64,000 bases of DNA. Source: Candidatus Sumerlaeia bacterium (GTDB taxonomy: Bacteria > Sumerlaeota > Sumerlaeia > SLMS01). The DNA lies in contig JBBQYG010000002.1 in assembly GCA_038208905.1 (NCBI GenBank), positions 3,626-67,625 of the forward strand, in the 5' to 3' direction. Positions 13,931 through 34,094 of the stretch are shown here, piece after piece (position 1 is the stretch's first letter; every line of letters starts with the position of its first letter). Made by a program: the position numbers and the translations under genes. A model generated the notes under the pieces. It had not been told where the DNA came from and searched no databases. It saw only the letters and a program-made list of their open reading frames with translations.

Positions 13931-16561
<2,631 letters not shown>

Positions 16562-16569
<8 letters not shown>

Positions 16570-16900: not shown

Positions 16901-17207
16901 GATGATAGGCTTACTGCTGTCGCTCGTGGCTGGGCTGTCGCTTGGAGCCCTCTTCTTCGGCGGGCTTTGGTGGGCCACTCGCAGGGCAATGCTATCAAGC
17001 CAACCGGTCTATTGGTTTCTCGGCAGCATGTTGCTGCGGTCGAGCATCGTCCTTGCCGGTTTCTATTTCGTCGCCCAGGGACAGTGGCATCGGCTGATCC
17101 CTTGTCTTCTCGGCTTTGTGGCGGCCCGGATCCTAGTGGTGCGGCTGACGAAGCCGCGGAGGGAACTGTCTGCTGGTCCAGAGGAGGTGCCCATCCATGC
17201 GCCTTAG
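16893..17207 (+). CDS. atpR: N-ATPase AtpR subunit (small membrane protein with conserved Arg)
   Basis: 104 aa; two TM helices with intramembrane arginines (GLWWATRRAML; VAARILVVRL). Operon position immediately upstream of the a subunit. Confidence 0.55.
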   Translation: MNEMIGLLLSLVAGLSLGALFFGGLWWATRRAMLSSQPVYWFLGSMLLRSSIVLAGFYFVAQGQWHRLIPCLLGFVAARILVVRLTKPRRELSAGPEEVPIHAP

Positions 17208-17919
17208 TCCTGACGAAATTGTATACTGGCAGTATGGATACTTCAAACTCAACGCCACGCTCGTGTTCACGTGGGGGCTGATGCTGTTGCTCGCCGTCGG
17301 CTCGAAGGTCATTACGAGAAAACTCTCGGTCGATCTGGATCGCTCGCGCTGGCAGAACTTTGTGGAGATCATTGTTTTGGGAATCATGAAGCAAATCGAG
17401 GAGGTTGGTTTGGCCAACCCGAGGAAATATCTGGCATTTCTGGGCACGCTCTTTCTGTTCATCGCCATGGCTAGTCTCTGCACGATCATTCCCGGGTATG
17501 AGACACCGACCGGTTCTCTGTCCACCACCATTGCGCTCGCTCTCTGCGTGTTCGTCGCTGTGCCACTCTTCGGCATCGAGGATCAAGGATTGATTGACTA
17601 CCTAAAGTCCTACCTGAAGCCGACCTACATCATGCTCCCCTTCAATGTCATCAGCGAGTTATCTCGTACGCTGGCTCTGGCCGTCCGCCTGTTTGGCAAT
17701 ATGATGAGCGGCGCGATGATCGTCGCGATCCTCGTCACCATCACGCCGCTCATCTTTCCGATCGTCATGACGCTACTCGGGCTTTTGACCGGTATGGTGC
17801 AGGCCTATATCTTCACCATTCTAGCCGCCGTCTATATCGCGGCCGCGATGCACGTGCGCGGCGCGGCGGGCGACGCGAAGGAATCGCAATCCAACCAGAC
17901 CGCCGCGGTCGGAAAGTGA
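17197..17919 (+). CDS. atpB: ATP synthase F0 subunit a
   Basis: 240 aa polytopic protein with the invariant a-subunit arginine in ALAVRLFGNMMSG. Confidence 0.8.
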   Translation: MRLSPDEIVYWQYGYFKLNATLVFTWGLMLLLAVGSKVITRKLSVDLDRSRWQNFVEIIVLGIMKQIEEVGLANPRKYLAFLGTLFLFIAMASLCTIIPGYETPTGSLSTTIALALCVFVAVPLFGIEDQGLIDYLKSYLKPTYIMLPFNVISELSRTLALAVRLFGNMMSGAMIVAILVTITPLIFPIVMTLLGLLTGMVQAYIFTILAAVYIAAAMHVRGAAGDAKESQSNQTAAVGK

Positions 17920-18617
17920 GGAACGGGATGCTTCACCGGGAAAAGCATCGGACGGACCGCATCGGCTGGCTGCCTGCGACCGTTCTCGGCGCAAACGACG
18001 GTGTCGTTTCGACCGCCAGTCTAATCGTCGGCGTCGCGGCAGCCCATGCCACCAGCGCCCAAATCCTTATAGCTGGCGCGACAGGATTGGTCGCCGGAAC
18101 CATGTCGATGGCGGCTGGAGAATACGTTTCGGTCAGTTCCCAGGCGGATACCGAGGCGGTGGATATTGCCATCGAAGAGGGGGAAATCGCGGCCGACCCG
18201 GGGAGAGAATTGATCGAGTTGGCGAGGATATGTGAGTCGCGTGGACTTGATCCCGCCCTTGCGACACAGGCAGCCGAGCAACTTACCGCCAGGGACGCGC
18301 TCGGTGCCCACGCCCGCGACGAACTCGGCATATTCTACGCCCTGAGAGCCAAACCCGTGCAGGCGGCGTTTGCTTCGTCGGGCTCATTGGCCGTGGGCGC
18401 CGCCATGCCACTGTTGACGGTAGTCGTTTCTGCCGAGCGCTACCTGATCCTGCTGGTTTCCAAATTCTCTCTGCTTCTCCTTGCGCTACTGGGCGGCGCG
18501 GCCGCGTTCGCCGGGGGCGCCAGTGCGAGGAAAGGGGCTCTGAGCGTCACTCTATGGGGCGCTTTCGCGATGGTTATCACCGCCGCCGTCGGAACTCTAT
18601 TTGGAGCCGTGCGATGA
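17916..18617 (+). CDS. VIT1/CCC1-family (Fe2+/Mn2+) transporter embedded in the ATPase operon
   Basis: LGANDGVVSTASLIVGVAAA, MSMAAGEYVSVSSQ, acidic cytoplasmic stretch EAVDIAIEEGEIAADPGRELIELARICESRGLDPALATQAAEQL, then three C-terminal TM helices. This is the full VIT1 topology with no N-terminal ferritin domain. GTG at 17916 overlaps the atpB stop; alternative ATG at 17928. Confidence 0.7.
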   Translation: MRNGMLHREKHRTDRIGWLPATVLGANDGVVSTASLIVGVAAAHATSAQILIAGATGLVAGTMSMAAGEYVSVSSQADTEAVDIAIEEGEIAADPGRELIELARICESRGLDPALATQAAEQLTARDALGAHARDELGIFYALRAKPVQAAFASSGSLAVGAAMPLLTVVVSAERYLILLVSKFSLLLLALLGGAAAFAGGASARKGALSVTLWGAFAMVITAAVGTLFGAVR

Positions 18618-18705
18618 CGCAATTTGACTGCGAGCTTGACGTGAAGGCCAGGGGCATTACGGCAACTCCCATGACCTGCCGCATCCAATCAACAGACCAA
18701 AGGAG

Positions 18706-18993
18706 ATGGACATGGACAGCATGACAATCATTGCGGTGGCATCAATCGTCATCGCGGGAATCACCACCGGATTTGGCACAATGGGTCCCGCGCTGGCCGA
18801 GGGAAAAGCCGTCGCTACGGCCCTGACTTCGCTGGCCGAGCAACCCGATGCCTCCGCCACAATCACCAGAACGCTGTTCGTTGGGTTGGCGATGATCGAA
18901 TCGACCGCCATCTATTGCTTCGTGGTTTCGATGATCCTCATCTTCGCCAATCCATTCTGGAACCACGTCATCGCCCAGGCGGCGGGAAAGTAA
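18706..18993 (+). CDS. atpE: ATP synthase F0 subunit c (Na+-type motif)
   Basis: 95 aa hairpin protein; TM2 carries ESTAIY, matching the E-S-T-x-x-Y Na+-ligand set of Ilyobacter/Propionigenium c subunits (ESTGIY, from memory). TM1 contains an extra Glu (ALAEGKAV). AGGAG RBS. Confidence 0.8.
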   Translation: MDMDSMTIIAVASIVIAGITTGFGTMGPALAEGKAVATALTSLAEQPDASATITRTLFVGLAMIESTAIYCFVVSMILIFANPFWNHVIAQAAGK

Positions 18994-18996
18994 CCC

Positions 18997-19806
18997 ATGC
19001 TGATCGATTGGTTCACCGTCGGCGCGCAACTGCTGAACTTTCTCATCCTTGTCTGGCTGATGAGGCGGTTTCTCTATAAGCCGATCCTCCGCGCCATCGA
19101 TGAGCGCGAGAAGCGAATCGCCTCTCAACTTTCTGACGCCGACGCCAAACGGGCGGAAGCGAAAAAGGGGCGCGATGAATTCCAGGCCAAGAACGAGGAA
19201 TTCGACCGACAGCGTGCGGCGATGCTGAGCCAAGCGGCCGACGAGGCGAAGAAGGAGCGTCAGCGCCTTCTCGACGAGGCGCGATCCGCCGCCGACGCCC
19301 TGAGTGCGAAACGACAGGAATCGACGCGAACCGAGGAGCAGAGTTTGCGCTCGGCAATCGCCCGGCGGACTCAGGAGGAAGTATTCGCGATCGCGCGAAG
19401 GGCGCTGAAGGATCTCTCCGGGACTAGCCTCGAGGATCGCATGGGAGAAGTCTTTACCCAACGCGTGCGAGAGATGGACGGCCAGCCGAAATCAGATCTC
19501 GCCACGGCCCTGAGGACGGTCTCCGGCGCCGCGATTGTGCGAACCGCTTTTGACTTGCCGACGGAGCAAAGGGCAACAATTCAACGTGCGCTCAACGAAA
19601 CTTTCTCGTCCGATATTCCCCTTCGCTTTGAAACGGCGCCGGATATTATCGGAGGAATCGAGCTCATCGCGAACGGTCAAAAGGTTGCCTGGAGTATCGC
19701 GGAATACCTCGCGTCGCTGGAAAGCAGTATCGAAGAACTCCTCAACAAGAAGGACAAGCCAGAGGCTAAAATGGAAAAGCCAGGCCCGGAAGCAAAGAGC
19801 CAATGA
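18997..19806 (+). CDS. atpF: ATP synthase F0 subunit b with delta-like C-terminal region
   Basis: 269 aa; N-terminal TM ([11 protein letters not shown]), long charged coiled coil, C-terminus [22 protein letters not shown] resembling the delta/OSCP C-terminus. No separate atpH is present, as in N-ATPases. Confidence 0.7.
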
Positions 19807-21356
19807 ACGGAGAGCCTGAAAGCCTGCGGAAGGTCTTCGACGGCGCCTTTGCCCGTGTGACCGAGGCGAGGGAAGCGTTCTCGCCGACACTGACACCGCG
19901 CGAAGTGGGTGTGATCGCGAGTGTCTCAACCGGCATTGCCATCGTCACGGGATTGCCCGGCGTGAGCTATGATGAAGTGCTCACGTTCCCCGGCGGCGTA
20001 CCCGGCATCGCCTTCAACGTGGACGAGGAAGAAGTGGGCGTTGTTCTGCTCCGCGCCTATTGGCACCTGAAGGCTGGCGATGAAGTGCAGCGCACGGGAC
20101 GCGTCATGGAGGTGGGAGTGGGTGACGGATTGCTGGGTCGCGTCCTCGACCCACTTGGTCAGCCGCTCGATGGCAACGGACCCTTGACCTTCAGCGGGCG
20201 ACTGCCGGTTGAGCGCCCCGCACCGCCGATCATGGATCGCGCGCCCGTTACCGTTCCGCTTCAGACCGGACTCAAGGTCGTCGATGCGCTCATTCCCGTG
20301 GGGCGAGGCCAGCGCGAATTGATTCTGGGCGACCGCCAGACAGGCAAAACTGCTGTCGCGATCGACACCATCCTCAATCAGAAGAACCACAATGTGGTTT
20401 GCGTCTATTGCGCCATCGGGCAGCGCGCGTCGGCGGTTGCCAAGACGGTGGCAAGCATGAGGGAGCGGGGCGCGATGGAATACACCGTTGTCGTGGTGGC
20501 AGAAGGCGACGCCCCGCCTGGTCTCTCCTACATCGCTCCCTATGCGGCCACGAGCATCGCCGAATCCTTCATGGAAGCGGGGAGGGATGTGCTGATCGTT
20601 TACGACGATCTGACGCATCATGCCCGCGCCTATCGCGAACTCTCGCTTCTGCTCCGCCGGCCCCCCGGTCGCGAGGCGTTTCCCGGCGACATCTTCTACA
20701 TCCACTCTCGCCTGCTTGAGCGGGCGACGCATCTGCGCAAGGAACTCGGCGGCGGGTCACTCTCCGCGCTCCCCATCATCGAGACGGAAGCCCAAAACCT
20801 TTCGGCCTATATTCCCACGAACCTGATTTCCATAACGGATGGACAGATATATCTGTCTCCCGCGCTGTTTGAGCTTGGCGTCCTGCCCGCCGTCGATGTC
20901 GCCAAATCGGTCTCGCGCGTCGGCGGGAAAGCCCAGAGGCCTGCCTACAGGGCGGTAACGGGCGACCTTAAGCTCGCCTACTCGCAGTTCGAGGAGCTCG
21001 AAACCTTCTCCCGCTTCGGAGCCCGGCTGGACGAGAGCACGCGCAAAATTATCGATCATGGGCGACGTATTCGAGCCTGCCTCAAGCAGCCCGAATTCAC
21101 CCCCGTTCCCGTTATGGGGCAAATTGCCATTCTGTTGGCACTGAGCGAGGGTCTCTTCGACCAAGTACCGATCGAGAAGATGACGGACGCCGAAACTGCC
21201 GTGCAGGATGCGGCGGATAAGATCCCCGCGGAGGTCAGCGAGCGACTGGATACCGCCGACAAGTTGAGCGATCAGGATCGCGAGGCGATCCTCCAGATTG
21301 TCCGCACCGCCCTCCTTCCGTTCCAGCAAAAACCTGAACCGGACAAGAAGCCGTGA
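19803..21356 (+). CDS. atpA: ATP synthase F1 alpha subunit
   Basis: [20 protein letters not shown]-loop; full alpha-subunit length (517 aa). Confidence 0.9.
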
Positions 21357-22246
21357 GCGACACCTCCGCAAGCCTGCGCAGGAAAATCGACAGCGCGACA
21401 GATCTCCAATCTGTGGTGCGAACGATGAGGGCTCTCGCAGCCTCCAGCATCACACAATACGAACAATCGGTGCGCTCCCTGACCGAGTACTATCGCATTG
21501 TGGAGCTTGGGCTGGGTGCCTGCCTTCGGGAACGCGGCACGATGACCTTGCTTGCAAAGAAGAAGAATACGGCAAGGGTCGCTGCAATTACCGCGGTGGT
21601 GTTCGGATCAGACCAGGGACTTGTTGGTCAGTTCAATGATGAGGTAGTCGATTTCGCCTCGCAGACACTCGCGTCCCTGCCGGCAAAACCGGAAATCTGG
21701 GCCGTGGGCGAACGCGTTCAAGCCTCGCTGGCCGACGCGGGATTTCCTACACGGGGGCTCTTCGCGGTGCCCGGATCCGCGAAGGCGATCACGCCACTCA
21801 TCGGACGGATTCTCGTGGAGAGCGCGTCGGGTTCCGCACACACAATACATGGTGAATTCCACCTCTTCTATAATCGTCCCAAAACCGGCGCCGCCTATGC
21901 CCCTGTTCATCAGCGTCTGTTGCCGCTCGACGAAAGCTGGCGCAGCAGACTGGCCGCGATCCCCTGGCCGAATGGGAACAAGCCCCAAATCAGGGAGGAT
22001 CACAACGGGACCTTGAGGGCGCTCGTGCGTGAGTACCTCTTCGTCTCCCTTTTTCGCGCTTGCGCCGAATCCCTTGCGAGCGAGAACGCGAGTCGCCTTG
22101 CTGCAATGCAGCGCGCCGACAAAAACATCGACGATCTGCTCGAGGAACTTAATAGCACCTTTCATCGCTTGCGCCAGGACGGTATCGACGCGGAGCTCTT
22201 CGATGTCATTTCCGGCTTTGTTGCGTTGAGCGGGAAAAAGAAGTGA
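21353..22246 (+). CDS. atpG: ATP synthase F1 gamma subunit
   Basis: 297 aa; N-terminal helix [26 protein letters not shown] and C-terminal helix typical of gamma. Last gene of the operon. Confidence 0.75.
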
Positions 22247-22531
22247 CTTCAATCCTTCGATTGGCTATGCTCCTGAGCCACGCGCTGGGGGGGCGATTCC
22301 TGAATCTCAGCGAAGGCACTTGCCAGGCGCATTGCCAAAGTAATCTCCAAGCGATACTTTCATTACATACCAATATGGAACCGCCGCCGCCACCTCGCAG
22401 AATGAAGAGCGCCGGATTCGGCTAGGCTTGCGGGGCTCCAAGGCGAACCGTATCCGTCCCGCCCCGACCATGTTGACTTGGGCCCCCTGTGCTGCTCGAC
22501 TGCCGCTTTTCCATCTTGCTGGGGAGAGCGG

Positions 22532-22992
22532 TCATGGGCACGAAGCGGGAATCCGTGTCGGCGGAGCGGGGTATTATCGTTGAGCGGTTCGAGGCGAGCG
22601 GGCTTTCAATGGCGGAGTTTTGCCGGCGGGAGGGGATAGCGTATTCGCAGTTCATGTCCCGGAGGAAGCGGCTTTCGTCCCCGGGTGAATCAGTCGGCGG
22701 CTTTGCGGAGCTGGTGCTGGCGCCGGGGGGCGGGTCGCCCGCGGAAGCGGCGCTCGTGGATCGCCACATCCGGGTCAACGGGGTCGCCCCCGGCCCCATT
22801 TGGACTCCCTTCATTCCAGCCATGGGCAGGGCACCGGATGACGTTGCCGCCCACGGCGACTCCTCGCCAATGAAACGCGCAGGCCAGCCCACCGAATGCG
22901 CCTCCGCCTTCGTGTTCCTCGCGTCGCTGGACAGTACCTCCATGACCGGTCAGGGACTCCACCCCAACGGCGGGGCGATCGTGAACGGCTGA
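22532..22992 (+). pseudogene. Chimeric remnant: IS66-family TnpA (orfA) N-terminal fragment fused in frame to the C-terminal ~85 aa of an SDR (YghA/YdaD general-stress dehydrogenase-like)
   Basis: N-part RESVSAERGIIVERFEASGLSMAEFCRREGIAYSQFMSRRKRL is the HTH of IS66 orfA-type proteins. From ...VDRHIRVNGVAPGPIWTPF...PMKRAGQPTECASAFVFLASLDSTSMTGQGLHPNGGAIVNG it is the conserved SDR C-terminus. No Rossmann TGxxxGxG N-terminus, no orfB/orfC. Confidence 0.6.
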
Positions 22993-23217: not shown

Positions 23218-23835
23218 ATGAAGCTAAAGAATCTCGAAGCACTCTACGTCGAACAGTTGCAGGACATGCATAGCGCCGAACGCCAGCTCGTGGCGGCCCT
23301 GCCCAAGATGGTCAAGGCGGCAAGTCACCCCGGCCTGGCGGCGGCGTTCAAATCCCACCTCGAGCAAACCAAGCATCACGTCGTAAGCGTTGCTGGGATC
23401 CTTGAGGGGATGGGAAAGAAGGCAGGCGGGAAGAAGTGCAAGGCGATGGAAGGCCTTGTCAAGGAAGGCTCGGAGATCATCGCTGAAGACGCCGAGGAGG
23501 AAGTCCGCGACGCGGGGCTCATCTGCGCCGCGCAGAAGATCGAGCACTACGAGATCGCCACCTACGGCTGCCTTCGCACCTTCGCCGCCCTGCTGGGGAG
23601 AGTTAAGGAGTCTACCCTCCTCCAGAAGCTGCTCGACGAGGAGAAGACCGCCGACGAAGCCCTTACATCCCTCGCAACGGCCGCGATCAATTCCCAGGCC
23701 ATGTCTCCCCCGATGGATGCGGAGCCCCGCCCCAAGCGTGCCGCGGCGCCGCGCCCCAAAGGCGCATCAGGCGCGTCGAGTGCCAAAAAGACTGTCCCGC
23801 CCAAGTCGAAACCGGCATCGCGCGGCAAGACCTGA
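23218..23835 (+). CDS. Ferritin-like DUF892 (YciF family) protein, second paralog, with Lys/Pro/Ala-rich C-terminal tail
   Basis: LEALYVEQLQDMHSAERQLVAALPKM...AAQKIEHYEIATYGCLRTFA parallels the 6472-6984 paralog. Basic low-complexity tail PKRAAAPRPKGASGASSAKKTVPPKSKPASRGKT. Confidence 0.7.
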   Translation: MKLKNLEALYVEQLQDMHSAERQLVAALPKMVKAASHPGLAAAFKSHLEQTKHHVVSVAGILEGMGKKAGGKKCKAMEGLVKEGSEIIAEDAEEEVRDAGLICAAQKIEHYEIATYGCLRTFAALLGRVKESTLLQKLLDEEKTADEALTSLATAAINSQAMSPPMDAEPRPKRAAAPRPKGASGASSAKKTVPPKSKPASRGKT

Positions 23836-24246: not shown

Positions 24247-24337
24247 TGGCGGACAGGGAGAGATTCGAACTCTCGGTGGGGGTTTAGCCCACACACGCGT
24301 TCCAGGCGTGCGCCTTAAACCACTCGGCCACCTGTCC
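24247..24337 (-). tRNA. tRNA-Ser (anticodon GGA), with encoded CCA
   Basis: Reverse complement reads GGACAGGTGGCCGAGTGGTTTAAGGCGCACGCCTGGAACGCGTG...GAGAGTTCGAATCTCTCCCTGTCCGCCA: 7-bp acceptor, D-arm, anticodon loop CUGGAAC, long variable arm (type II), T-arm GTTCGAATC. Confidence 0.85.
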
Positions 24338-24433: not shown

Positions 24434-25102
24434 TCAGATCGCGAAGCCGCGCCCCGGGCCGAAGTAGAAGATGTCCCCGTCGCTGATTGTTCCATTGGTG
24501 GGGTCATAGATCTGGCCGCTGCCGTGGACGTGGGGGCCCGTGGGCGCGGTGATGTGGGGCACGTTCATGTCGTGCTTTTTGTCGGGACCAAAGCTGACGA
24601 AGAAGTAGGCCACGTTGGATGGTGGCTCCTGGCCGGTAACCTCCAGAAAGAACACCCGCCACACAGTGTTCCAGTTGGAGGTGGGGGAGTTGTTCCGGCG
24701 GATCTGAACATAGTCCCACGTGATGCAGTGATAGATTTGAGACTCGCCATGCCGCACTTTTTCCGCAAAGGGATCGTTGGAAAGCGACGTGATATAGGCC
24801 ACCGGCGTCGTCAGCAGGATCGGCAGGCGCGTTTCCATCGGGTTCACCGTCAGCGCCATCACGGGGCTGGGGATATAGGCCCCCCTATCGTCGGACGGAA
24901 CGGCATAGCGGCCGTTGTCCACATGGTAGGCCTCCATGGCGACGGAGAAGGAGCGCATGTCGCTCTTGACGCGAGATATCTTGGAGCGGGTCTGGGCCTC
25001 CAGAAAGTTGGGCACCGCGATGGCCGCAAGGATGGCAATGATCGCGACGACGATGAGGAGTTCGATGAGGGTGAAGGCACGGCGGGGGCTGGCGTGTGGC
25101 AT
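24434..25102 (-). CDS. Prepilin-type N-terminal cleavage/methylation-domain protein (type II secretion pseudopilin-like)
   Basis: N-terminus MPHASPRRAFTLIELLIVVAIIAILAAIAVPNFLEAQTRSK is a class III signal/prepilin motif. A His...DG motif (HGSGQIYDPTNGTISDGD) lies near the C-terminus. Confidence 0.75.
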   Translation of the reverse strand: MPHASPRRAFTLIELLIVVAIIAILAAIAVPNFLEAQTRSKISRVKSDMRSFSVAMEAYHVDNGRYAVPSDDRGAYIPSPVMALTVNPMETRLPILLTTPVAYITSLSNDPFAEKVRHGESQIYHCITWDYVQIRRNNSPTSNWNTVWRVFFLEVTGQEPPSNVAYFFVSFGPDKKHDMNVPHITAPTGPHVHGSGQIYDPTNGTISDGDIFYFGPGRGFAI

Positions 25103-25238: not shown

Positions 25239-26414
25239 ATGAAGGCATTCACCGCAGGCGCCGCGCTGGCCGCGTCGCTCGTTCTCGCCTCCGCCGCTCA
25301 GGCGCAGGTCAATTTCAACACCGTCGTCTCCATCACCCAGGAACTGACCGTTGCGGAGATCGAAACCGCGCTCTCCGCCGCCAGCACCTTCCGCATCGAC
25401 GGCGTCGCCCTTGGGCCGGCAGGGACGATCTTCATCGTCCACGCGTCCACCACGGGCGCCAAGACCATCGCCCGGTTCGACGCAACGGCGGCGACGCCCA
25501 CGGCGCTCTATTCCAAGAGCACCGCGCAGTTGAAGGCCGACCTGGGCGGCGTATATGCGTCGGAGGCCACCTTCCCAATCCTCGTCTCGGAACTCGTCTG
25601 GGATCCCAGTACCGGCACCAATGGCACCCTCTACTTTGCCGACGAGTCCACGGTGACCACCGGCGAGTATGCCGTGCTGCGCCTCAATCTGGACACGAAC
25701 GTTGCCAGCGAAGTGCGCCGCAACAACGACATCGCCGGATGGAACAGCTTTGGCGTGCTCGCCTCCGGCAACCTGGTCGGCGCGCTTGGCGAGGAGCACG
25801 AGGTCCTCACCGGGGGCGAGCCCCAAGTGGGCAGCCTCAACGTCACCAGCGGTGTCTATACAGAGGTCGCCGACGTGGACGACTTCATCGCGAAGGCCGT
25901 CCCGGCGCTTGGCCCCACCGACGAACTCCCGCCCGAGACCATCGCCGTCAATCCCGCCAATAACGACGTCTACGTCTTTGGCCACGACAACTTCCGCATC
26001 TTCCGCGTCACCAACTTCGAGTCGGTGACATTCAATCCCGCCACCGACATCGCCCAGCTAGACATCCCCGAGTGGAACGGCGGCGACCTGAACCCCGGCT
26101 TTGTTGACCTTCACGGCTTGGCCGTGGACGAGGACGGCAACGTCTATGGATTCGACGAGGGGAACGAGGCCATTGTGATCTGGAACGGCACCGACACCTT
26201 TGACATCCCGCTCGACGACATCACGACCGCCATCGGCGGCACCGTGGGCGTCAGCGACTTCGAGCCCACGCTCTGGCGCGGACTCAAGGCCCGCAAGGTC
26301 AACGCCACCCAGAGCGAAGTCTGGCTCTCCAGCGGCACCGACGACTACGGCGTCGTGCGCATCATCCTCGGCAATGGCCCGCTGTCCGTCGCAAATTGGC
26401 AGATGTTCCAATAG
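25239..26414 (+). CDS. Secreted hypothetical protein (signal peptide, Thr/Asp/Gly-rich beta-type repeats)
   Basis: MKAFTAGAALAASLVLASAAQAQ signal peptide with AQA cleavage site; GGGAG RBS. No recognisable catalytic motif. Confidence 0.5.
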   Translation: MKAFTAGAALAASLVLASAAQAQVNFNTVVSITQELTVAEIETALSAASTFRIDGVALGPAGTIFIVHASTTGAKTIARFDATAATPTALYSKSTAQLKADLGGVYASEATFPILVSELVWDPSTGTNGTLYFADESTVTTGEYAVLRLNLDTNVASEVRRNNDIAGWNSFGVLASGNLVGALGEEHEVLTGGEPQVGSLNVTSGVYTEVADVDDFIAKAVPALGPTDELPPETIAVNPANNDVYVFGHDNFRIFRVTNFESVTFNPATDIAQLDIPEWNGGDLNPGFVDLHGLAVDEDGNVYGFDEGNEAIVIWNGTDTFDIPLDDITTAIGGTVGVSDFEPTLWRGLKARKVNATQSEVWLSSGTDDYGVVRIILGNGPLSVANWQMFQ

Positions 26415-26465
26415 TGGAAACAAGGGTGGTGGGCTGGGGATCCATGCCCCCGGCCCGCTACTCCG

Positions 26466-28738
26466 CCGTGCCGACCGGCAGGACATCAACAACGATGATA
26501 TTCTCCGCGCCAAGCGCGACCTCCACCTCGGCGGATTCCCCCTGCCACTTGCCGTCGCGGGAGCGGAAGGTGGCGCGGTAGCGGCCGGCGGCGATGCGGA
26601 GAAACTGGGCTGCGGGCGTGATGACTGCTCGTTTTCTCCAGATAATTGCGGCGTGGATACGAAGGGCCCGAGGCGATCCAGAGTCACGTCGCCATCCACC
26701 GCGGCTTGTTCTGTTGGGAAGACGAGCGCGATGCCCACGTCGCGGTAGTGGATCGTGAAGTCTTGGTGCTGCTCTGCTTCATGACGATTTCAAGGGGGCC
26801 CGATGCGGCGGTGATATTGTGCAGGTCGATACGGTCGTAATCGGCATGCATGATCGAGAGATTGTCGATTCGGCTGCTCTCGCCAAGGCCGCCGATGGTG
26901 AAGTTGCCATCGGCATCCGTGGGCACGGTTGCGCCCATTTCGAGTGTCTGGCCCGTCCTGACGATGTTGGGATTCACCTCGGCTCCGGCAATCGGCTTGC
27001 CGTCCTCGTTGCGGAGGGTGCCGATCAACTCCAATCCCTCGCCGAGTTCGATGTCAACATTTCGCCGATATTCGCCGGGGGCGAGTTCCAGCGTCTGCGG
27101 CGGCGGCGCGGTGTGGCCACTCTTCCCCACGCTGACCGCGGAGGCGACGCCCGCCTGGATGACAACGCGCCCGTGGGGAACCCGCTCGATGTAGTAGGTG
27201 CCATGGACGCCGGTGTTCACATTGGCGTTGAACGATTGGGCCCCCCCGGTGGTTGCACTCACAAGAATCCGCACGCCCTCCACCGGCTGTCGGCTTGCAT
27301 CGCGGACGGTGCCAGAGATGGAGGCGTCCTTGCGAAGGATGAATCGCGTTTCCTCGCCTTCCCCGACGCGGGGAAACTCCATGGACTTTGCGTCCGAACC
27401 GACGCCCTCCAACATGGCGGTCGCTTGGCCCGTGCCGCCGGATGGACCCATCACACGGAACCGACCACCATTGCCCGCCTTCAGGGTCGTGCGGGAAATG
27501 TTCGACCCACGGACTGATAAAATCGCTCCGTCGGCAGGTGTCTTCTCGTCCTCGAGGAGGACGATCCCCCGTGCATAGACACCCTTGGCAAAGCGCAGCT
27601 CCACGTGGGGTGGCTTGGCATGGTTGTGTATATACACGATGACGGTATTCGGTTCGCTGAATTGCGGTTCGGCAACTTGGACATGACCGTCGGGCGGATT
27701 TATATACAGTAGCACGCCGCTGCCGAGCATCGGGCCGGGAACATTCCTGAGCACGAAAGTCCCATCGGCACCGGAGATCGCCACCGGCGCCGGCTTGTTG
27801 GCCGGGGCACCCTCCACGAAGTTGGACTGGGAGACCTTCACCCCCGGAATCGGGGCACCGGTGGAGTCATCCAACGTCGTTCCTGCAACGGATATGAATG
27901 GTGGAAAGCGAATCTCGATATCGGCGTCCGAACGGTTGCGAAGGTCCACCATCGTGATGGCGCTCCTGGCAGATAGGCCATCAGGCGACCGGAGCTCCGC
28001 CGTCACAACGTAGTTCCCGGGCCCCAATCCGGCGAACTCGAATGCGCCGTCCTCATCGGTGATCGTGGATTCGCCAAAGAGTCCCGCCAGGATGTTCCCA
28101 GAGGGACCTCGCGCGGTTGAGTTGCCAGCCACCACCTTTGCTCCCTCAATGGGAGTGCCGTCGACCTCCACTGCACGCCCACGGATGGTGCGGTCGCCCC
28201 GTGCCAGACGAATCGTCACGTCGTTGGAGCCAGCATTCACCCCCTCGGCGATGCCGGGCGCAAACCCCGGCGCGCGCGCGAGAATGGTAAAGGGAATGGA
28301 GTCCTCCACTCCCTCGATGCGGAAGTTCCCGGATGCGTCGCTTGCGGCCCACGCCATCGAGAAGACATTGCCAATCGCCTCGTGCCGCGGGCCGGTGCGC
28401 TGGCGCTCGATTCCGGGCGCTGCCACGAGCATCGCGTCGGCGATTCCCGCGCCCGATTCGTCCACGACACGCCCGGCAACGGAGCCGCCCGGGAGGAGTT
28501 GAATCACGATCTCGCCCCGCCGAGCCACGTCGGGATAGATATTGACCGCGCAGGCGAGGAACCCCGGCGCCTCCCTTGGATTTCGCGAGGCAAGAAGTAG
28601 GCGCACGAGACCGACAGAGCAAGGCGAGTCGTGCGCGCGATGCCGCCTTACTACTTCCAGAGCCGAAATCCACGGTGGCATTGGCGCCTTGCCAATGCAC
28701 GACCATGCCGCGGGTGCCGCTGCACGGGCGAGACGCAC
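26466..28738 (-). pseudogene. Truncated/frameshifted paralog of the giant carboxypeptidase-regulatory-like (CarbopepD_reg) repeat protein
   Basis: 684-aa ORF (26684-28738) carries about five GRVVDESGAGIADAMLVAA...SGNFRIEGV-type repeats, colinear with the N-terminal two-thirds of the 1374-aa neighbour, but no N-terminal TM anchor. After GPLEIVMK the frame diverges. Homologous C-domain pieces (DFTIHYRDVGIALVFPTEQAAVDGDVTLDRLGP; AAGRYRATFRSRDGKWQGESAEVEVALGAENIIVVDV) are found in two other frames down to a stop at ~26466, with roughly 400 aa deleted relative to the intact copy. Confidence 0.55.
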
Positions 28739-28810
28739 CGTGCTACTGTGCTTCGCGCGCCCGGGAAATAGAATCAGAGACTACGGAGGTCCGTTTTTCG
28801 GAAAGTTGCC

Positions 28811-28847
28811 CAAATAATAAAGCGGTGCGGGCAAATGCCCGCGCCGC
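28811..28847 (-). terminator. Rho-independent terminator of the 1374-aa gene
   Basis: On minus strand: GCGGCGCGGGC-ATTT-GCCCGCACCGC hairpin followed by UUUAUUAUUUGGG. Located 55 nt after the stop at 28902. Confidence 0.6.
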
Positions 28848-28901
28848 TCCATTGCCTTTTTCCCCGCCGTTCCCTGCTTCTCCCTGCTTTTCCCTGCCTT
28901 C

Positions 28902-31900
28902 TCACTGCTGTTTCTGCATCCACACGCCACCGTTGCTGACGCCGGCGGCCTTGATATAGGCAACGACGGTGAAGCGGGCGCCGGGTTCGAAGGCGGGGAC
29001 GGCGAGGCGGTAGATGTGGTCGCGGCGCGTATATCCACTCCAGCCGATGTGGCTGTCGGTGGCTATCTCTCCGCCGTTCATCTTCAGCGCGGCTCTCTCG
29101 ATCTGGAGACCCTCGGCGCCGTTCTCGTAGTCGAAGAGCACCTGCCAGAATCCGGCGCTGGTGATGATGGCGGTGGCGTCGAATTCCACGGCGTGGACGG
29201 CGTCGCGTTTTTCGGTCTCGGCCCACGACCCAAGGCGTTGTCGTCCGGCATTGTCGGCGACCTCGATGACTAGGATGTTCTCCGCCCCTACCTGCACGTC
29301 CGCCTCCTCGGAGGTTCCCTGCCACTTGCCGTCGGGGGATCGGAAGGATGCCTTGTAGCGGCCAGCGGCGACGTTGACGAATGTGGCGGACTCGCGACTG
29401 ACGGTCTGCTTGTCGGTGAGGCGATACAGTTGCTCAGTATTGGTGGCGACGGGTGCTAGGAGGACATCGCCACCCACGGGGTCCTGTCCCACGGGATAGA
29501 CAAGCGCGACGCTGACGGCGCAGAGGGCGATGACGAATTCCTTCTCCTGCGCGTCGGGCGTGGGGGTGATTTCGAAATCACCCACGCGGACCGGCTCCGG
29601 GAACATGTTGCCCACGCGGCGAGACATCATTAGGCGATACCTCCCCGGCGCGAGGAGGCCCGTGAAGCGCCCGGCCTCTCCGCGGTTGGAGAAGGCGGTC
29701 CTGGATGCGGTTTCCCCGGCGGTGGGATTGGTGGGCATGGCGCTGAAGGTTACGTTGTTGTCGGCGGCGAGGGCCGTCAGGCCGTTGGGCCCGCTGGATT
29801 TGATGATCGCGGTGAAGGCGATCTCTCCGCTGAAGTCGAAGTTCTTCTCGATGCGCTCGCCCGGCTTGAGCTGGAGCGACTCGCTCTTGGTGAAGTTGGC
29901 GTCGGCCAGCGTGACAATGATGGATGCCCGGCCCGTGGCGATATTGGTTAACTCGTACTCGCCCTCGGCGCCAGCGGTGGCGCTGCGCGCCGCGTCATTG
30001 TTCCCATAGTACGATATCCGCGCCGTGGTCGCCGGCTTCCCATCCCGTCCGATGATCCTTCCAAACACCGACGCCTTGGACCCAAGCCGCAGGGTGATCT
30101 GCGCCGACTCGCGTCCGGCTACCGCTGCGGACTTCTCGGTATTCTGGTCCTCCGCGGGCTGATCGAGCCCGTCCTTCGCCGCGGAGAGGTGATAGTCGCC
30201 GGGGATTACCCCCGAGAGGGCGAACATGCCCTCCGCGCTTGTATAGACATTGGCGGGATCGAACGCGCCGTGGGTGGGGATGTTGTACCACTGGACGCGC
30301 TTGCGATAGAGCCCCACCGACGCCATGGCGACGGCCTCGTCCCCCTCACCGGAGACCACCCGCCCCACCAGGACTCCGCGCGGGCCAAGAGTCACGGCGG
30401 CCTCGGGCGCTTCCTTTCCCTGCTCCACCTTGATCGTGACGACGCCCACGTCGCCAGTCACGTCGGTTCCCGACTCCACGATCTGATAGGTGTGATCGCC
30501 GGAAGTGACCCCCTTCATCCGCAGCAGTCCGCCTGCCTCGAGGACTTGGGTAGAGGGTTGGCCCGCGGGCCGGAGGATTCCATACCCCTGTTGGTAGACT
30601 TCGCGGTACAGCACGCTTGCTGGCGCGGATCCATCGGCGCGCACCACGCGAATCGTGGCGGAGCCGCGGGGCTTGATCACGATCTCCAGCGGCCCAGACG
30701 CGATGGTAAGGTTTTCCCGGCTGATGGGATCATAGTCCTCATGGCTGATGGACAGGTTGTTGATGACCGTGGTTTCCTGAAGGCTGACGATGGTGAACTT
30801 CCCCTCCGCGTCGGTGGTGGTGTTCCGGTCAACCCATGCGCTCTGGCTGTACACATTGGGATTCACGCTGGCATTGGCGATCGGCTCGCCCTTCTCGTTC
30901 TTGACGGTGCCTGTCAGGGTCAGCCCCTCGTCCAGCACGAAGTCCACGGGGCGGCGGTATTCGCCCGGCTTCAGGTCCAGCGTCTGCACTGGTGGCTGGG
31001 TGTACTTCTTTAGGTTTTCCCAGAGCGGAGATCCGCGGTCGTTGTGTTGGTCGAGGGAGGCGTGAATCTTGGCCTGGCCGTGGGGAACGTTTTCCAGATA
31101 GTAGGAGCCATCCTTGCCCGTCGCCACCCTACCACCGTTGAAAGTCGTCATCTGCCCGCTCATGAGTGTGACGCCAGCCATGACGAAGACGCCCTCGACA
31201 GGCTCACCCGCGGGACCGCGGACAGTTCCGGAGATCGCTGCGTTCTTCTTCAGGATCAGGCGCACCTCGTCCGGCTCGCCGGTGGAGGGAATCACGACGT
31301 CCATTCGGTCCGTGCCGAATCCAGCAAGCGCCGCGAAGACATTGGCCTGATAGCCGGGAAGGCCCAGCACGACAAAGCGCCCCTCGCTGTCGGTGTTGAC
31401 GCTGGTGGCGCTTCCGCGTTCCCGCTGCATCGTCACCTCGGCCCCTGCCGCGGGGGTCGCTTCGTCGTCCTTGAGGACAACCCCATTCACCGTGACTCCC
31501 TTGGCGAAGCGCAGTTCGACTTTCGGCGGAATTGATGGATCGGGAATCTGAAGATGAACTTGGTCTCCCCAGTTCCGGAGATCGGGGGCCTTGAGATAGC
31601 CCGTCGGCGGCAGGGAATAAATGGCGATGCTCTGGCCCTGCATCGTCACTTGATCGAGCGTGAACGTTCCGTCGATGCCGGAGGTGGCGACGGGAGCCTC
31701 GCGATTGGCGGGAGCGCCCTCGCTGAAATTGGACGTGGAGACCTTGACCCCGGCAAGTGGGGCCCCTGTGGTGTCCTCCAGCGCGATGCCCGTGATCGAT
31801 ACCGGCTTGGGAAAGCGCAACTCCACCTCGGCGACTTTCTCGGTCGTCAGATCAACGCTTTGATTGATCTGTCGCTTGGGAATCCCTTGGGGGCCCATCT

Positions 31901-33026
31901 CCATCGCTATCACCACGTACTGCCCGGGTCCAATGGAGGCGATCTCGAAGGCCCCCTGGGCATCCGACGTGGTGGTGGTGCTCGCGGGCACCATCAGCAT
32001 GTTCAGGATCCCAATTTGCGCATTGGCCACGACGGAGGCGCCGGCCACCGGAGCGCCATCAGGCTCGAGCACGCGCCCGCGGATGACGCGGTCGCCAGCC
32101 TCCAGCTCGATCACCAGGGCCTCCATCCCCGGCTTCACGCCCTCCTTGGTCGTGGCGACGAAATTCTTGGCCTTGGCCACCACGGAGTAGGTTGAGGATT
32201 CCTCCGTCCCCTGAAGGACGAAATTCCCCGACGCGTCGGAAACGCCATTCGCAATCGAGTAGCTCATTGCCACCGCCGAGTCGGCCTGCATCCCCCCCAT
32301 TGGCATCCCGTTGGGAGCGGCGATCAGCTTAGCCTCGGCGATGCCCGCGCCGCCCTCCTTCGCCACAACCCGGCCGGTGATTGTCCCACCCTTTTTCAAC
32401 TCAATGCGGATTTCCTCTTTGCGCGCCACCGTGGTATTAATGGCGCTCATGGAAGTCGCGAATCCCGGCGCCTCCACGACGATCGCGATAAAGTTCTGAC
32501 CCTGTGGCATCTGGGGAGTTCCAAGCGTCCACGGAATCTCGAACCGGCCATCGGCACCCGTCTCGCCAAGAAACTCGGCATCGGGAATCTCTCCGCCCAT
32601 GAAGCGCATGACAGTGCGCCCCATCCCCGAAATGCGCGCACCAGCAACGCCGGCACCGCCATCCGCCGCAACGACGACGCCCTTGAGGACGAGACCAGAA
32701 TTGGCGTCCTGCGCGATGCCGCCGTGGCCCGCATCAGCCTCGGGGGCGGTCTCCACCGTTGGTTCGGGAGTGGGTTCTGCCACTGCGGGCTCAACCGTGC
32801 CGCCGGGAAGCGCGGGCAACGCCTCCACCGCGACCACCGCGTTGGAGGCGATCTCCATCGCGGGCTGCCCGCCCCCGGTCTCTCGTCCGCGCATGATGAA
32901 AACCACCGCGACAACCACGACCAGCAACGCCGCCAGAATTCCAACGATTGCCTTTGTATTCGAGCCACCCAGCCGATACCCCGCCACGCCGAAAAATCGA
33001 CGAACCATTCCCGCCACCTCGCGCAC
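28902..33026 (-). CDS. Giant membrane-anchored surface protein with ~8 carboxypeptidase-regulatory-like (PF13620-type) domains and a ~500-aa C-terminal domain of unknown function
   Basis: N-terminal signal-anchor (KAIVGILAALLVVVVAVVFIM). Repeated ~90-aa units with G(R/T)VV..DGxPVAGAxV...TDxxGxFxL motifs. C-terminal region has no recognised catalytic motif. Confidence 0.6.
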   Translation of the reverse strand: MREVAGMVRRFFGVAGYRLGGSNTKAIVGILAALLVVVVAVVFIMRGRETGGGQPAMEIASNAVVAVEALPALPGGTVEPAVAEPTPEPTVETAPEADAGHGGIAQDANSGLVLKGVVVAADGGAGVAGARISGMGRTVMRFMGGEIPDAEFLGETGADGRFEIPWTLGTPQMPQGQNFIAIVVEAPGFATSMSAINTTVARKEEIRIELKKGGTITGRVVAKEGGAGIAEAKLIAAPNGMPMGGMQADSAVAMSYSIANGVSDASGNFVLQGTEESSTYSVVAKAKNFVATTKEGVKPGMEALVIELEAGDRVIRGRVLEPDGAPVAGASVVANAQIGILNMLMVPASTTTTSDAQGAFEIASIGPGQYVVIAMEMGPQGIPKRQINQSVDLTTEKVAEVELRFPKPVSITGIALEDTTGAPLAGVKVSTSNFSEGAPANREAPVATSGIDGTFTLDQVTMQGQSIAIYSLPPTGYLKAPDLRNWGDQVHLQIPDPSIPPKVELRFAKGVTVNGVVLKDDEATPAAGAEVTMQRERGSATSVNTDSEGRFVVLGLPGYQANVFAALAGFGTDRMDVVIPSTGEPDEVRLILKKNAAISGTVRGPAGEPVEGVFVMAGVTLMSGQMTTFNGGRVATGKDGSYYLENVPHGQAKIHASLDQHNDRGSPLWENLKKYTQPPVQTLDLKPGEYRRPVDFVLDEGLTLTGTVKNEKGEPIANASVNPNVYSQSAWVDRNTTTDAEGKFTIVSLQETTVINNLSISHEDYDPISRENLTIASGPLEIVIKPRGSATIRVVRADGSAPASVLYREVYQQGYGILRPAGQPSTQVLEAGGLLRMKGVTSGDHTYQIVESGTDVTGDVGVVTIKVEQGKEAPEAAVTLGPRGVLVGRVVSGEGDEAVAMASVGLYRKRVQWYNIPTHGAFDPANVYTSAEGMFALSGVIPGDYHLSAAKDGLDQPAEDQNTEKSAAVAGRESAQITLRLGSKASVFGRIIGRDGKPATTARISYYGNNDAARSATAGAEGEYELTNIATGRASIIVTLADANFTKSESLQLKPGERIEKNFDFSGEIAFTAIIKSSGPNGLTALAADNNVTFSAMPTNPTAGETASRTAFSNRGEAGRFTGLLAPGRYRLMMSRRVGNMFPEPVRVGDFEITPTPDAQEKEFVIALCAVSVALVYPVGQDPVGGDVLLAPVATNTEQLYRLTDKQTVSRESATFVNVAAGRYKASFRSPDGKWQGTSEEADVQVGAENILVIEVADNAGRQRLGSWAETEKRDAVHAVEFDATAIITSAGFWQVLFDYENGAEGLQIERAALKMNGGEIATDSHIGWSGYTRRDHIYRLAVPAFEPGARFTVVAYIKAAGVSNGGVWMQKQQ

Positions 33027-33321
33027 ACGAATTTACAGCACCGACGATTATGACTCTCACAAGTCAGAGCAAGGTTAGATACGCAGATGGCGGATTTATA
33101 TTCAGCGCCACCCGCGAATTCACCGAACCCCGTCGAAACGCACCATCGCAAGCAAGTCGCGGATTGAGTGACCGTGGATTTGGATGCGGTTGGAACCTTC
33201 CAGAATATATAGTTATCTCCACCATTTCCAATCGCCGTCCATGTCGCAGCAAATGACGATCCGCCATCGGATGCGGCGCGCGCGGCACCGTGCCCTCCCT
33301 ACTGCTTGGGTGGCTCATGCG

Positions 33322-33820
33322 TCACCACGATCTCACATGGTCTTCCGCGCTTGCCTTCAGCGATACCTGATTTGCCACGTCGATCCCTTCCAATCGAAAG
33401 GAGCCATCATCGCCGACGACCTTTTGGTGGGAGACACCGATCTTGCCACTTTGGCCGGGATTCCCGGGCGAAGAGAGTGACGCTCGCACCATGGCGCCCG
33501 CCACCGGGGCGCCCGCGTCATCCAACAGGCGGCCCGCCATAAAGGATCCCTTGCCAAGCTACGCGCGCAGCTCGCTCTCTCCACCTTTAATTCTCGCGTG
33601 GAGGAACTCGGACGCATACCCTCTCGCGCGGACATTGAGTGGCGCGCGGCCGATCACGCTTCCCGTACTGCGGAAGACAATCATCGCCGTCGTAACATCA
33701 AAAGTGCCATCGGCCCCCGATGCGCCGAGGAGCGTTTCGTCCGGCTCCGCCGAGTTGCGCCGATAGATGACCTGAAACAGCTCCGCCCCCGCGATCGGCG
33801 CGCCAACAGCGCGCCCACCA
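33322..33820 (-). pseudogene. Remnants of a third CarbopepD_reg-domain gene (two domain fragments in different frames)
   Basis: Minus-strand translations MAGRLLDDAGAPVAGAMVRASLS...GDDGSFRLEGIDV (33322-33540) and ...VALVGGGRAVGAPIAGAELFQVIYRR...GASGADGTFDVTTAMIV (C-terminal part of the 33559-34110 ORF) match the repeat unit of the neighbouring giant proteins. No intact start or continuous frame. Confidence 0.45.
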
Positions 33821-34094
33821 CCAACCAGCGCCACGCTGCTGCGCCACGCCGTTGACCAAGTAGCCTGAAAGAATCCATCCCGATGATCCCTCTCCCAATG
33901 TTTGTGCAGATCGTGGGGATTTGGGTGATCAATCCGCAAGCGAGCAAGTTGCGGCATGATCGTTTTCCCCACCCGGCACTTTGCCGTTGACGGGGGGTGG
34001 GGGTTCGGAGGACACAGGCGGGCTTTTCGGGGAAGGCGCCTCCCCAGCACCGCGCGCCGCACATTCATCGTCGATCGATCAGGAGTCCTGCTTC

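Follow-up and report, generated by a model that had tools for sequence, protein, structure and literature searches.

Do related genes in unequal states of repair record the decay of a gene family, or do they form a reservoir from which one expressed member is varied? The question is raised by a minus-strand locus within the 64,000-nucleotide stretch of DNA analysed here (the window), where an intact gene for a giant repeat protein has a broken copy immediately downstream and smaller, related coding sequence upstream. The original prediction, made from the sequence, allowed for both answers: a duplicated surface-protein locus undergoing erosion, or a cassette-donor system serving the expressed copy. 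Our analysis favours the first, and we put at roughly 80% the probability that the locus is an old tandem duplication eroding to a single working member, with no variation system.

The intact gene and its product

The largest gene had been predicted to be intact and to encode a signal anchor, and both points were borne out by an unbroken ORF of 1374 aa. Its real start is probably the ATG at 33008, giving 1368 aa; this codon is favoured because a 98%-identical ortholog, P0001 on contig L001, has 1372 aa. The protein has a single hydrophobic segment, with a mean Kyte-Doolittle value of 3.37 over 19 residues compared to 1.72 for the runner-up, and this putative anchor would remain uncleaved. The features of the gene are as follows.

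28902-33026, minus strand: intact gene (ORF, Pfam CarboxypepD_reg, ortholog P0001)
32892-32948, minus strand: hydrophobic signal-anchor, aa 27-45, IVGILAALLVVVVAVVFIM (Kyte-Doolittle; R/K-rich residues just before)
29262-32696, minus strand: predicted stalk of about 12 transthyretin-like/CarboxypepD_reg beta-sandwich domains, aa 111-1255 (HMM, AlphaFold, Foldseek)
28905-29258, minus strand: terminal domain of about 115 aa, aa 1257-1374 (phmmer and Foldseek to 8pxt/8pxu/8pxv)

The expected repeats are present in a larger number than the eight or so first counted, being nine or more: a home-made iterated repeat HMM finds nine between aa 111 and 1055, and Pfam places CarboxypepD_reg in seven stretches (E=4.9e-57), with a PF13620 score of 190.7 bits against a gathering cut-off of 32.3. 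SdrD_B and SpaA are secondary Pfam matches. AlphaFold models of the repeats contain almost only strands, as a beta-sandwich fold requires, the prediction being all-beta for aa 100-790 (pLDDT 77) and entirely beta-strand for aa 786-1374 (pLDDT 67). The C-terminal half, previously described as one unknown domain of about 500 aa, appears instead to comprise about five more beta-sandwiches, with two further CarboxypepD_reg repeats at aa 884-962 and 985-1055, followed by a domain of 115 aa whose homolog is the C-terminal domain of an Akkermansia GH20 hexosaminidase.

This tip domain matches the C-terminal domain of the Akkermansia muciniphila GH20 beta-N-acetylhexosaminidase both in sequence (phmmer E=6e-12 to residues 527-641 of 8pxu) and in predicted fold (Foldseek to 8pxt/8pxu/8pxv: 34% identity over 114 aa, with an rmsd of 3.2 A). 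What the two proteins have in common is limited to this accessory domain; Pfam gives no match to the Glyco_hydro_20 catalytic domain (PF00728) in the intact gene, which rules it out as a GH20 beta-N-acetylhexosaminidase. Pfam holds no model for the tip domain, and a literature search on the identifiers 8pxt, 8pxu and 8pxv found no paper describing the accessory domain in GH20 among the library searched. A word-index protein search with the last 193 aa returned no match, not even P0001, which is a limit of the word index; an exhaustive search of representative clusters recovered the domain in 321 of them, including a GH20 enzyme and proteins of about 1350 aa built like the product of the intact gene.

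Foldseek matches to the stalk are strings of beta-sandwiches, for example the TIE protein, Gram-positive pilins and SdrD. The SdrD B repeats, the Spa, Rrg and BcpA pilins and the Bacillus anthracis TIE protein consist of Ig/transthyretin-like beta-sandwich strings, as is predicted for this protein. The similarity is at the level of domains only, with low TM-scores (0.1-0.2), and unlike these Gram-positive rod proteins the present one would be anchored by an N-terminal helix; no LPXTG/sortase motif or pilin assembly genes were reported by Pfam and NCBIfam.

Relatives, location and divergence between strains

The intact gene aligns colinearly and over its full length, at 25–29% identity, with P0002, P0003, L002_B, P0137 and P0139, the aligned spans being aa 113-1254 with P0002, 116-1254 with P0003, 113-1264 with L002_B and 81-1373 with P0137. 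A similar N-terminal anchor is visible in P0002, P0003, P0004, P0009 and P0137. The near full-length colinear alignment, together with its own anchor, places the gene in a family with an anchor and a stalk of about 12 domains; P0002, P0003 (hypothetical protein GC173_02230, GCA_016125005.1), P0137 and P0139 likewise combine an anchor with a colinear run of about 1150 aa of predicted beta-sandwiches. It is the tip that differs. P0002 and P0004 have none, P0003 and L002_B end in PG_binding_1, and P0137 and P0139 have the same GH20-C-like terminal domain as the intact gene. Relatives of the P0003 type are uncharacterised ‘carboxypeptidase regulatory-like domain-containing’ envelope proteins of uncultured bacteria, and their identity to the present protein is low. 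A scan of GTDB genomes with the protein gave no match.

Tandem pairs occur among these relatives. Contig L002 (Logan SRR25822370) carries in succession genes of 1228 aa and 1296 aa, same-strand paralogs of which one is tipped and the other plain, as in the window; unlike in the window, both are intact and anchored, and the order of plain and tipped members is reversed. The two copies in the window are 45% identical to each other compared to 26–29% to either L002 gene, so the two duplications were probably independent. The 510-nt tails that follow P0137 in other metagenomes encode no related paralog.

Location at the cell surface, which had been assumed, is not established: the sole export signal is the N-terminal anchor, and Pfam and NCBIfam reveal no surface-attachment domain and none of the outer-membrane or surface modules sought (beta-barrel, T9SS CTD, PEP-CTERM, SLH, LPXTG). 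Colinear relatives that end in PG_binding_1 point rather to the periplasm or the cell wall.

Between the window and L001 (99.3% identical), the intact gene shows 25 amino-acid differences and one 12-nt indel. Its 25 non-synonymous and four synonymous changes compare with 21 and 26 in neighbouring genes (Fisher p=3e-4), and the 25:4 ratio itself does not significantly exceed what neutrality would predict (binomial p=0.11); rapid evolution of the gene, or relaxed constraint on it as well, may lie behind this pattern.

One further reading, which we offer as speculative and rather unlikely, is that these proteins form a hitherto undescribed family of stalks anchored in the inner membrane and crossing the periplasm, with an interchangeable tip (PG_binding_1, GH20-C-like or none) docking onto cell-wall glycan, so that the whole would serve the envelope as a tether or spacer, and with the intact copy under diversifying selection, to which its 25 to 4 changes would be due, for example as a contact point for phages or predators. 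About 12 extended beta-sandwich domains would then reach tens of nanometres. Whatever their role, the locus points to an uncharacterised and widespread family of anchor, stalk and variable tip in the envelope of uncultured high-GC bacteria.

The downstream copy and the upstream ORF

Immediately downstream lies a colinear paralog that had been described as lacking the anchor, split over three frames and largely deprived of its C-terminal region. The first two points stand: the copy is 45% identical to the intact gene and occupies three frames, and its highest Kyte-Doolittle value is 1.18, which leaves no hydrophobic anchor. At its 3' end, however, the copy is not truncated, its stop codon falling at the point where the related P0002 and P0004 also finish; by this comparison its 3' end is the natural C-terminus of the family, and the tip domain, which it does not have, is an addition in the intact gene beyond that point. 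Its features, with those of its surroundings, are as follows.

28574-28901, minus strand: spacer, including a fortuitous 5' extension (from GTG 28738) of a 684-codon ORF (no homology, non-coding composition)
26777-28573, minus strand: pseudogene segment A, equivalent to aa 185-789 of the intact gene, six repeats, open in the window (tblastn, Pfam, HMM)
26771-26777, minus strand: junction of an out-of-frame deletion of about 1.1 kb, at which aa ~790-1157 (about four domains, about 368 codons) are lost (frame jump)
26679-26771, minus strand: pseudogene segment B, aa 1160-1190, second frame (tblastn 45%, 31 aa, colinear)
26633-26636, minus strand: A4 run, a 1-nt deletion relative to A5 in contig L005 and a second, window-specific frameshift (pairwise alignment of L005 and window)
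26458-26634, minus strand: pseudogene segment C, aa 1206-1256, third frame, ending in TAG at 26458-26460 (tblastn 57%, 51 aa)
33322-33957, minus strand: 211-codon upstream ORF, small and anchorless, with two CarboxypepD_reg-like domains (single-frame translation, HMM)

Homology in the first segment is extensive, aa 185-785 of the intact gene matching 28573-26777 at 45% amino-acid identity (tblastn E=1e-133); CarboxypepD_reg is found there by Pfam (E=3e-39), with a PF13620 score of 133.5 bits in five stretches for the whole pseudogene ORF. The match resumes with aa 1160-1190 at 26771-26679 and aa 1206-1256 at 26634-26482. At the deletion junction the reading runs ‘...GPLEIVMK’ and then directly, in the next frame, ‘QHQDFTIHY...’, which corresponds to aa 1160 onward. 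The first 184 aa have no counterpart: in no frame does 28574-28901 resemble them, nor does it encode a hydrophobic segment, and the codon-position composition of 28574-28738 looks non-coding (GC3 0.58, GC2 0.64). This 5' truncation is seen in the window assembly alone, since L005 stops short of it and L001 spans only about 60 nt.

Similarity at the nucleotide level, also anticipated, was confirmed by comparing the locus with itself. Colinear matching blocks join the downstream copy to the intact gene, the best being 26497-26594 against 29274-29371 (77% identity, E=3e-16), with three further blocks at 65–82%.

L005, an independent metagenome contig 98.9% identical to the window, retains the same deletion junction and frame change. 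It has A5 for the A4 of the window at 26636, which places segments B and C in one frame, and it carries two nonsense codons of its own, AAG to TAG at 27388 and TGG to TGA at 26545. The A4/A5 difference falls within a homopolymer, and a sequencing error in one or other assembly could account for it. Segment A shows four non-synonymous and four synonymous changes between the two, a number too small to establish neutrality.

The coding sequence upstream had been taken for two isolated fragments in different frames. It reads as one frame of 211 codons, broken by nothing but a TAG at 33559-33561, in place of which L001 has GAG (Glu) and an uninterrupted called gene of 211 aa. The three states of preservation originally proposed are therefore roughly right, save that the third is one ORF with one stop. 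Its relationship to the intact gene is distant: 25% identity to aa 148-290 (E=2e-5), a DNA match of only 21 nt, two repeats by HMM with PF13620 scores of 25.8-27.4 bits (below the cut-off of 32.3), and a low GC3 of 0.67. We considered whether it could be the missing 5' part of the pseudogene and rejected this, as it corresponds to aa ~113-290, at 25% identity, and overlaps the part retained from aa 185 on.

Erosion or variation

Between 26458 and 28573, then, lies a paralog that is 45% identical over 600 aa, is without the first 184 aa and is disrupted by one out-of-frame deletion and one frameshift. Disabling mutations differ between close genomes, the window having lost one nucleotide from the A-run and L005 having gained two nonsense codons, with the junction common to both. 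Such independent lesions in close strains imply that the downstream copy is a real and recently inactivated pseudogene and not an assembly error. With the strain-specific nonsense codon upstream, the lesions extend over three assemblies, and they bear out the proposal that a duplicated locus is being eroded. The pseudogene differs from the intact gene at pS 0.62 and pN 0.39 (dN/dS about 0.43); therefore most of their divergence arose under constraint. GC3 declines from 0.83-0.88 in neighbouring genes to 0.80 in the intact gene, 0.75 in the pseudogene, 0.67 in the upstream ORF and 0.58 in the 5' extension.

The history that we propose begins with the duplication in tandem, long ago, of a gene whose product is an extracytoplasmic stalk protein anchored in the membrane and composed of an N-terminal signal-anchor, a linker rich in Ala, Pro and Glu and about 12 beta-sandwich domains. 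The copy at 28902-33026 would have stayed intact and bears the extra distal domain resembling the C-terminal domain of a GH20 hexosaminidase. The copy at 26458-28573 probably kept its function through most of the period after duplication and was inactivated recently; it would have lost its 5' end, with start codon, anchor and first domain, been struck also by the single out-of-frame deletion, and would now be gathering strain-specific lesions. The far more diverged two-domain ORF upstream appears to have suffered its nonsense mutation in this genome only. Both broken copies are presumably silent, and would not feed sequence into the intact gene; a truncated product of the still-open 684-codon ORF is conceivable.

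That ORF (26684-28738) might be a living, shortened gene for a six-domain protein that has no anchor and has taken on a new role, its tail alone being dead. In the window it stays open over 2 kb, yet L005 has a TAG at codon ~451; its dN/dS against the intact gene is below 1 and the four-to-four changes between window and L005 are not clearly neutral, yet its first 55 codons have neither coding composition nor homology, and it terminates by reading out of frame past the deletion junction. It encodes neither a signal peptide nor an anchor, yet every domain is extracytoplasmic in type. A search of 5.8 billion proteins returned no identical or close homolog, L005 having come from a scan at the DNA level. 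We regard a living gene here as quite improbable and prefer recent pseudogenisation.

That the frame disruptions are assembly or sequencing errors, each copy being one continuous gene, is very unlikely: the A4/A5 difference does lie at a typical site of indel error, but the out-of-frame junction recurs in an independently assembled metagenome contig differing at 1% of sites, the two further nonsense substitutions of L005 are not indel-type errors, and neither a missing 5' end nor about 368 missing codons is a frameshift error. Over 14.5 kb of the window L001 shows two indels only (12 nt in frame and 1 nt intergenic), so the assembly is not indel-prone. Programmed frameshifting was rejected, as the sister strain is without one of the frameshifts and has nonsense codons instead.

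The erosion reading would bear mainly on annotation: the 684-codon ORF is best labelled a pseudogene, the pieces upstream recorded as one gene with a strain-polymorphic stop, and the putative 500-aa unknown domain as further stalk with a recognisable tip domain. The locus would offer a clean, small case of a gene whose inactivation is recent and whose lesions differ between sister strains known from metagenomes, an ordinary erosion of a gene family and no new mechanism of variation.

The cassette-donor proposal holds that promoterless partial copies act as silent donors which, by gene conversion, vary an expressed and exposed protein. A partial, anchorless copy does adjoin the intact gene, which also has, relative to its neighbours, a surplus of non-synonymous changes from strain to strain that could be read in the same sense; this excess is, as noted, not significantly above neutral. 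The substrate for recombination is lacking. The longest exact word common to both copies is 18 nt, compared to 11-16 nt in shuffled or unrelated DNA, DNA identity is 65–77% (the best block reaching 77% over about 100 nt) and there is no conserved flank at which recombination might start. There is one candidate donor and no bank of cassettes, the upstream ORF being too distant in protein and DNA alike, and that donor itself holds nonsense codons and frameshifts that differ by strain. Nor do the strain differences of the intact gene reproduce the pseudogene: neither their cluster at aa 333-390 nor the 12-nt indel has a DNA match in it, and just two of the 13 comparable substitutions agree with it in protein. 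We consider donation barely plausible. A diversity-generating retroelement was rejected because mismatches are not adenine-specific; in the best-matching pair of repeats, 29260-29385 and 26483-26608, A takes part in 14 of the 32 substitutions and C, G or T in the other 18, with indels besides, and no RT domain was found among the neighbouring proteins scanned.

Silent-cassette loci such as pilE/pilS of Neisseria, vlsE/vls of Borrelia and msp2 of Anaplasma possess many cassettes, long near-identical tracts and mosaic expressed alleles. Neither such tracts nor, between the window and L001, such alleles were found here. The present locus resembles pilE/pilS, vlsE/vls and msp2 in that an intact, presumably expressed gene stands beside a promoterless, 5'-truncated homolog; it differs from them in having one decayed copy, common words of 18 nt or less, 65–77% identity and no mosaicism of the intact gene between the window and L001.

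Structure of the tandem locus

The locus represents ordinary decay of tandem paralogs within a repeat-protein family that is widespread and uncharacterised. The original prediction, an array of repeat surface-protein genes in three states of preservation, is largely correct and stands well beyond chance, but it misdescribed the frames of the upstream piece and what the C-terminal half of the intact protein consists of. The features are as follows (residue numbers are those of the intact protein).

28902-33026, minus: intact gene, uninterrupted ORF of 1374 aa
28573-26777, minus: downstream copy, piece 1, corresponding to aa 185-785 (45% identity, E=1e-133), first frame
26771-26679, minus: downstream copy, piece 2, corresponding to aa 1160-1190 (45% identity), second frame
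26634-26482, minus: downstream copy, piece 3, corresponding to aa 1206-1256 (57% identity), third frame
33322-33957, minus: upstream ORF of 211 codons in a single frame, with one internal TAG at 33559-33561

The three downstream pieces, which are colinear, were recovered by tblastn with the intact protein. At the first frame change '...GPLEIVMK' gives way within 5 nt to 'QHQDFTIHY...', at the junction of a single deletion, by which approximately 368 codons (four domains) were lost out of frame. Piece 3 ends at TAG 26458-26460; the 3' end of the copy is not truncated, since the related proteins P0002 and P0004 terminate at the corresponding position, and the terminal-domain difference between the copies is an extra tip domain in the intact gene. 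Upstream of 28573, no likeness to aa 1-184 was found in any frame; a 55-codon extension of non-coding composition (GC3 0.58, GC2 0.64) supplies the GTG start of a 684-aa ORF, and the downstream copy contained no hydrophobic segment. Nucleotide-level similarity between the copies is real, as predicted, but modest: one block of ~100 nt, which pairs 26497-26594 with 29274-29371, is 77% identical, and three others have 65-82%.

The upstream ORF had been described as two fragments in different frames, which is wrong. Its internal stop codon is GAG in L001, a metagenome contig from a close strain, where the gene caller reports an intact 211-aa gene. The product has two CarboxypepD_reg-like domains, shares only 25% identity with residues 148-290 of the intact protein, and no membrane anchor was found in it; all three differences between the window and L001 are non-synonymous. 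The upstream ORF is a relative of greater age and under weak constraint, and it has been inactivated in the window genome.

Inactivation and the question of a variation system

A scan of metagenome contigs for DNA patterns found L005 (Ga0163154_10105875, 1714 nt), from another close strain, which aligns to window positions 27712-26000 at 98.9%. The out-of-frame deletion junction is common to both. The A-run at 26633-26636 is A4 in the window and A5 in L005, where the last two pseudogene segments share one frame, and the second frameshift of the window is therefore strain-specific; L005 has nonsense substitutions of its own (AAG to TAG at 27388, TGG to TGA at 26545). Because an old lesion is shared while new lesions differ between two near-identical genomes, the downstream copy is in all likelihood a true pseudogene, and the erosion anticipated in the original prediction is the right reading. 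The same pattern excludes assembly error as a general explanation, although the homopolymer difference, taken alone, could be a sequencing or assembly error. Over the 14.5 kb that L001 shares with the window (43008-28514), the alignment contains just two indels, an in-frame one of 12 nt and an intergenic one of 1 nt, and the assembly is therefore not prone to such errors. L001 ends 389 nt past the intact gene, ~60 nt into pseudogene homology, and each of the three listed contigs with the ortholog-like P0137 (L088, L089, L090) stops exactly 510 nt past the gene, in tails encoding nothing related; assembly breaks are thus repeated just downstream of genes of this stalk-protein family.

Between the intact gene and the first-frame part of the pseudogene (26777-28573), pS is 0.62, near saturation, pN is 0.39 and dN/dS is ~0.43, so most of the 55% protein divergence arose while both copies were constrained. 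Survival of a 2-kb open frame in the window argues for recent inactivation. GC3 falls from 0.83-0.88 in neighbouring genes to 0.80 in the intact gene, 0.75 in the pseudogene and 0.67 in the upstream ORF.

The alternative reading is that the copies are cassette donors for variation of the expressed gene. Against L001 (10001-14119), from a strain 99.3% identical, the intact gene (28902-33008) has 25 non-synonymous and 4 synonymous differences, with one cluster at aa 333-390, and an in-frame, GGC-rich indel of 12 nt at 32006; pooled flanking genes have 21 and 26 respectively, a significant excess for the intact gene (Fisher p=3e-4). The 25:4 ratio does not significantly exceed neutral expectation (binomial p=0.11); rapid evolution, or a loosening of constraint throughout the locus, may lie behind it. 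Neither the variant bases nor the indel match pseudogene sequence, there is one candidate donor and no cassette bank at the locus, and the longest exact word common to gene and pseudogene is 18 nt, against 11-16 nt in size-matched controls of shuffled or unrelated sequence. A variation system is therefore without support. In the best repeat pair the mismatches are not adenine-specific, which rules out a DGR for that pair.

Genomic setting

The locus is chromosomal, flanked on one side by tRNA-Ser (24247-24337), a pseudopilin-like gene and a secreted beta-propeller-like gene, and on the other by rpsT, a PIG-L deacetylase and a sigma-54 activator. The prepilin-type pseudopilin gene (N_methyl/GspG-like) occupies 24434-25102 (minus) in the region adjoining the pseudogene; a 391-aa gene (25239-26414, plus), whose N-terminus resembles a signal peptide and which has only faint matches to NHL/RCC1 repeats, converges on the pseudogene stop across a 43-nt gap. 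Another gene remnant lies ~3.5 kb from the array, a 167-aa ORF (22489-22992, plus) whose C-terminal 74 aa match only the tail (161-234/236) of an SDR/enoyl-ACP reductase profile; its HTH-like N-terminus (NikA-like, E=0.005) is presumably akin to an IS accessory protein fragment. Further away are an ATP synthase operon (~14700-22250, plus), a DUF892 (ferritin-like, YciE/YciF-type) paralog pair 16 kb apart (6376-6984 and 23218-23835, plus), and a 2041-aa ORF (8-6133, plus) with GH94 supersandwich and catalytic domains and a glucoamylase-like domain, which resembles a cyclic beta-1,2-glucan synthase/phosphorylase and seems to extend beyond the start of the window. The alpha subunit of the ATP synthase shares 73-81% identity with MAGs labelled as Acidobacteriota, Verrucomicrobiota, Chloroflexota, Proteobacteria, Planctomycetota and even one archaeon; so wide a spread over phyla points to an ATPase cluster of N-type-like kind that moves horizontally.

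The intact protein and its relatives

Pfam CarboxypepD_reg matches the intact protein in seven stretches (E=4.9e-57), and a profile made from the best of its repeats detects nine copies within aa 111-1055. The sole strongly hydrophobic segment, aa 27-45 (mean Kyte-Doolittle 3.37; runner-up 1.72), follows a basic N-terminus, from which we infer an uncleaved N-in signal-anchor. The ortholog on L001 (P0001, 1372 aa, JGI contig Ga0105049_10005305) is 98% identical; its start codon corresponds to the ATG at 33008, where translation of the window gene more likely begins as well. Pfam and NCBIfam identified no outer-membrane or surface-attachment module; taken with the inner-membrane-type anchor and with the tips that bind peptidoglycan in relatives, this would make the periplasm or cell wall no less probable a location than the exposed cell surface.

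Colinear relatives in MAGs and metagenomes are 25-29% identical. The window's two copies, at 45% identity, are far closer to each other than to any of these, including P0003 and the proteins on L002 (a contig of distant relatives), and for this reason the duplication is probably lineage-specific. L002 carries a comparable tandem pair with both members intact, one plain and the other with a C-terminal PG_binding_1, as in P0003.

The C-terminal half had been taken for one unknown domain of ~500 aa. It contains two further CarboxypepD_reg repeats (aa 884-962 and 985-1055, by Pfam and the protein's own profile) and a terminal domain with known homologs. This tip domain (aa 1257-1374, ~115 aa) is homologous to residues 527-641 of the Akkermansia muciniphila GH20 beta-N-acetylhexosaminidase (PDB 8pxt/8pxu/8pxv; phmmer E=6e-12), and its model fits that structure with an rmsd of 3.2 A across 114 residues, at 34% sequence identity (Foldseek). 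An exhaustive search placed the domain in 321 representative clusters, among them a GH20 enzyme (P0140) and several ~1350-aa proteins with the architecture of the intact gene; of these, P0137 and P0139 cover aa 81-1373 in alignments of 27-28% identity. P0149 (1122 aa), also in these clusters, is an unusual sigma-factor fusion to the stalk-and-tip architecture, in which ECF sigma-factor regions 2 and 4 are joined to CarboxypepD_reg repeats and to the same GH20-C-like terminal domain. The Akkermansia enzyme and the intact protein have the C-terminal domain in common, whereas the GH20 catalytic domain is absent from the latter (Pfam). AlphaFold models are nearly all beta-strand (aa 100-790, mean pLDDT 77; aa 786-1374, mean pLDDT 67), and the structures matched by Foldseek are strings of beta-sandwiches: TIE protein, Gram-positive pilins and SdrD.
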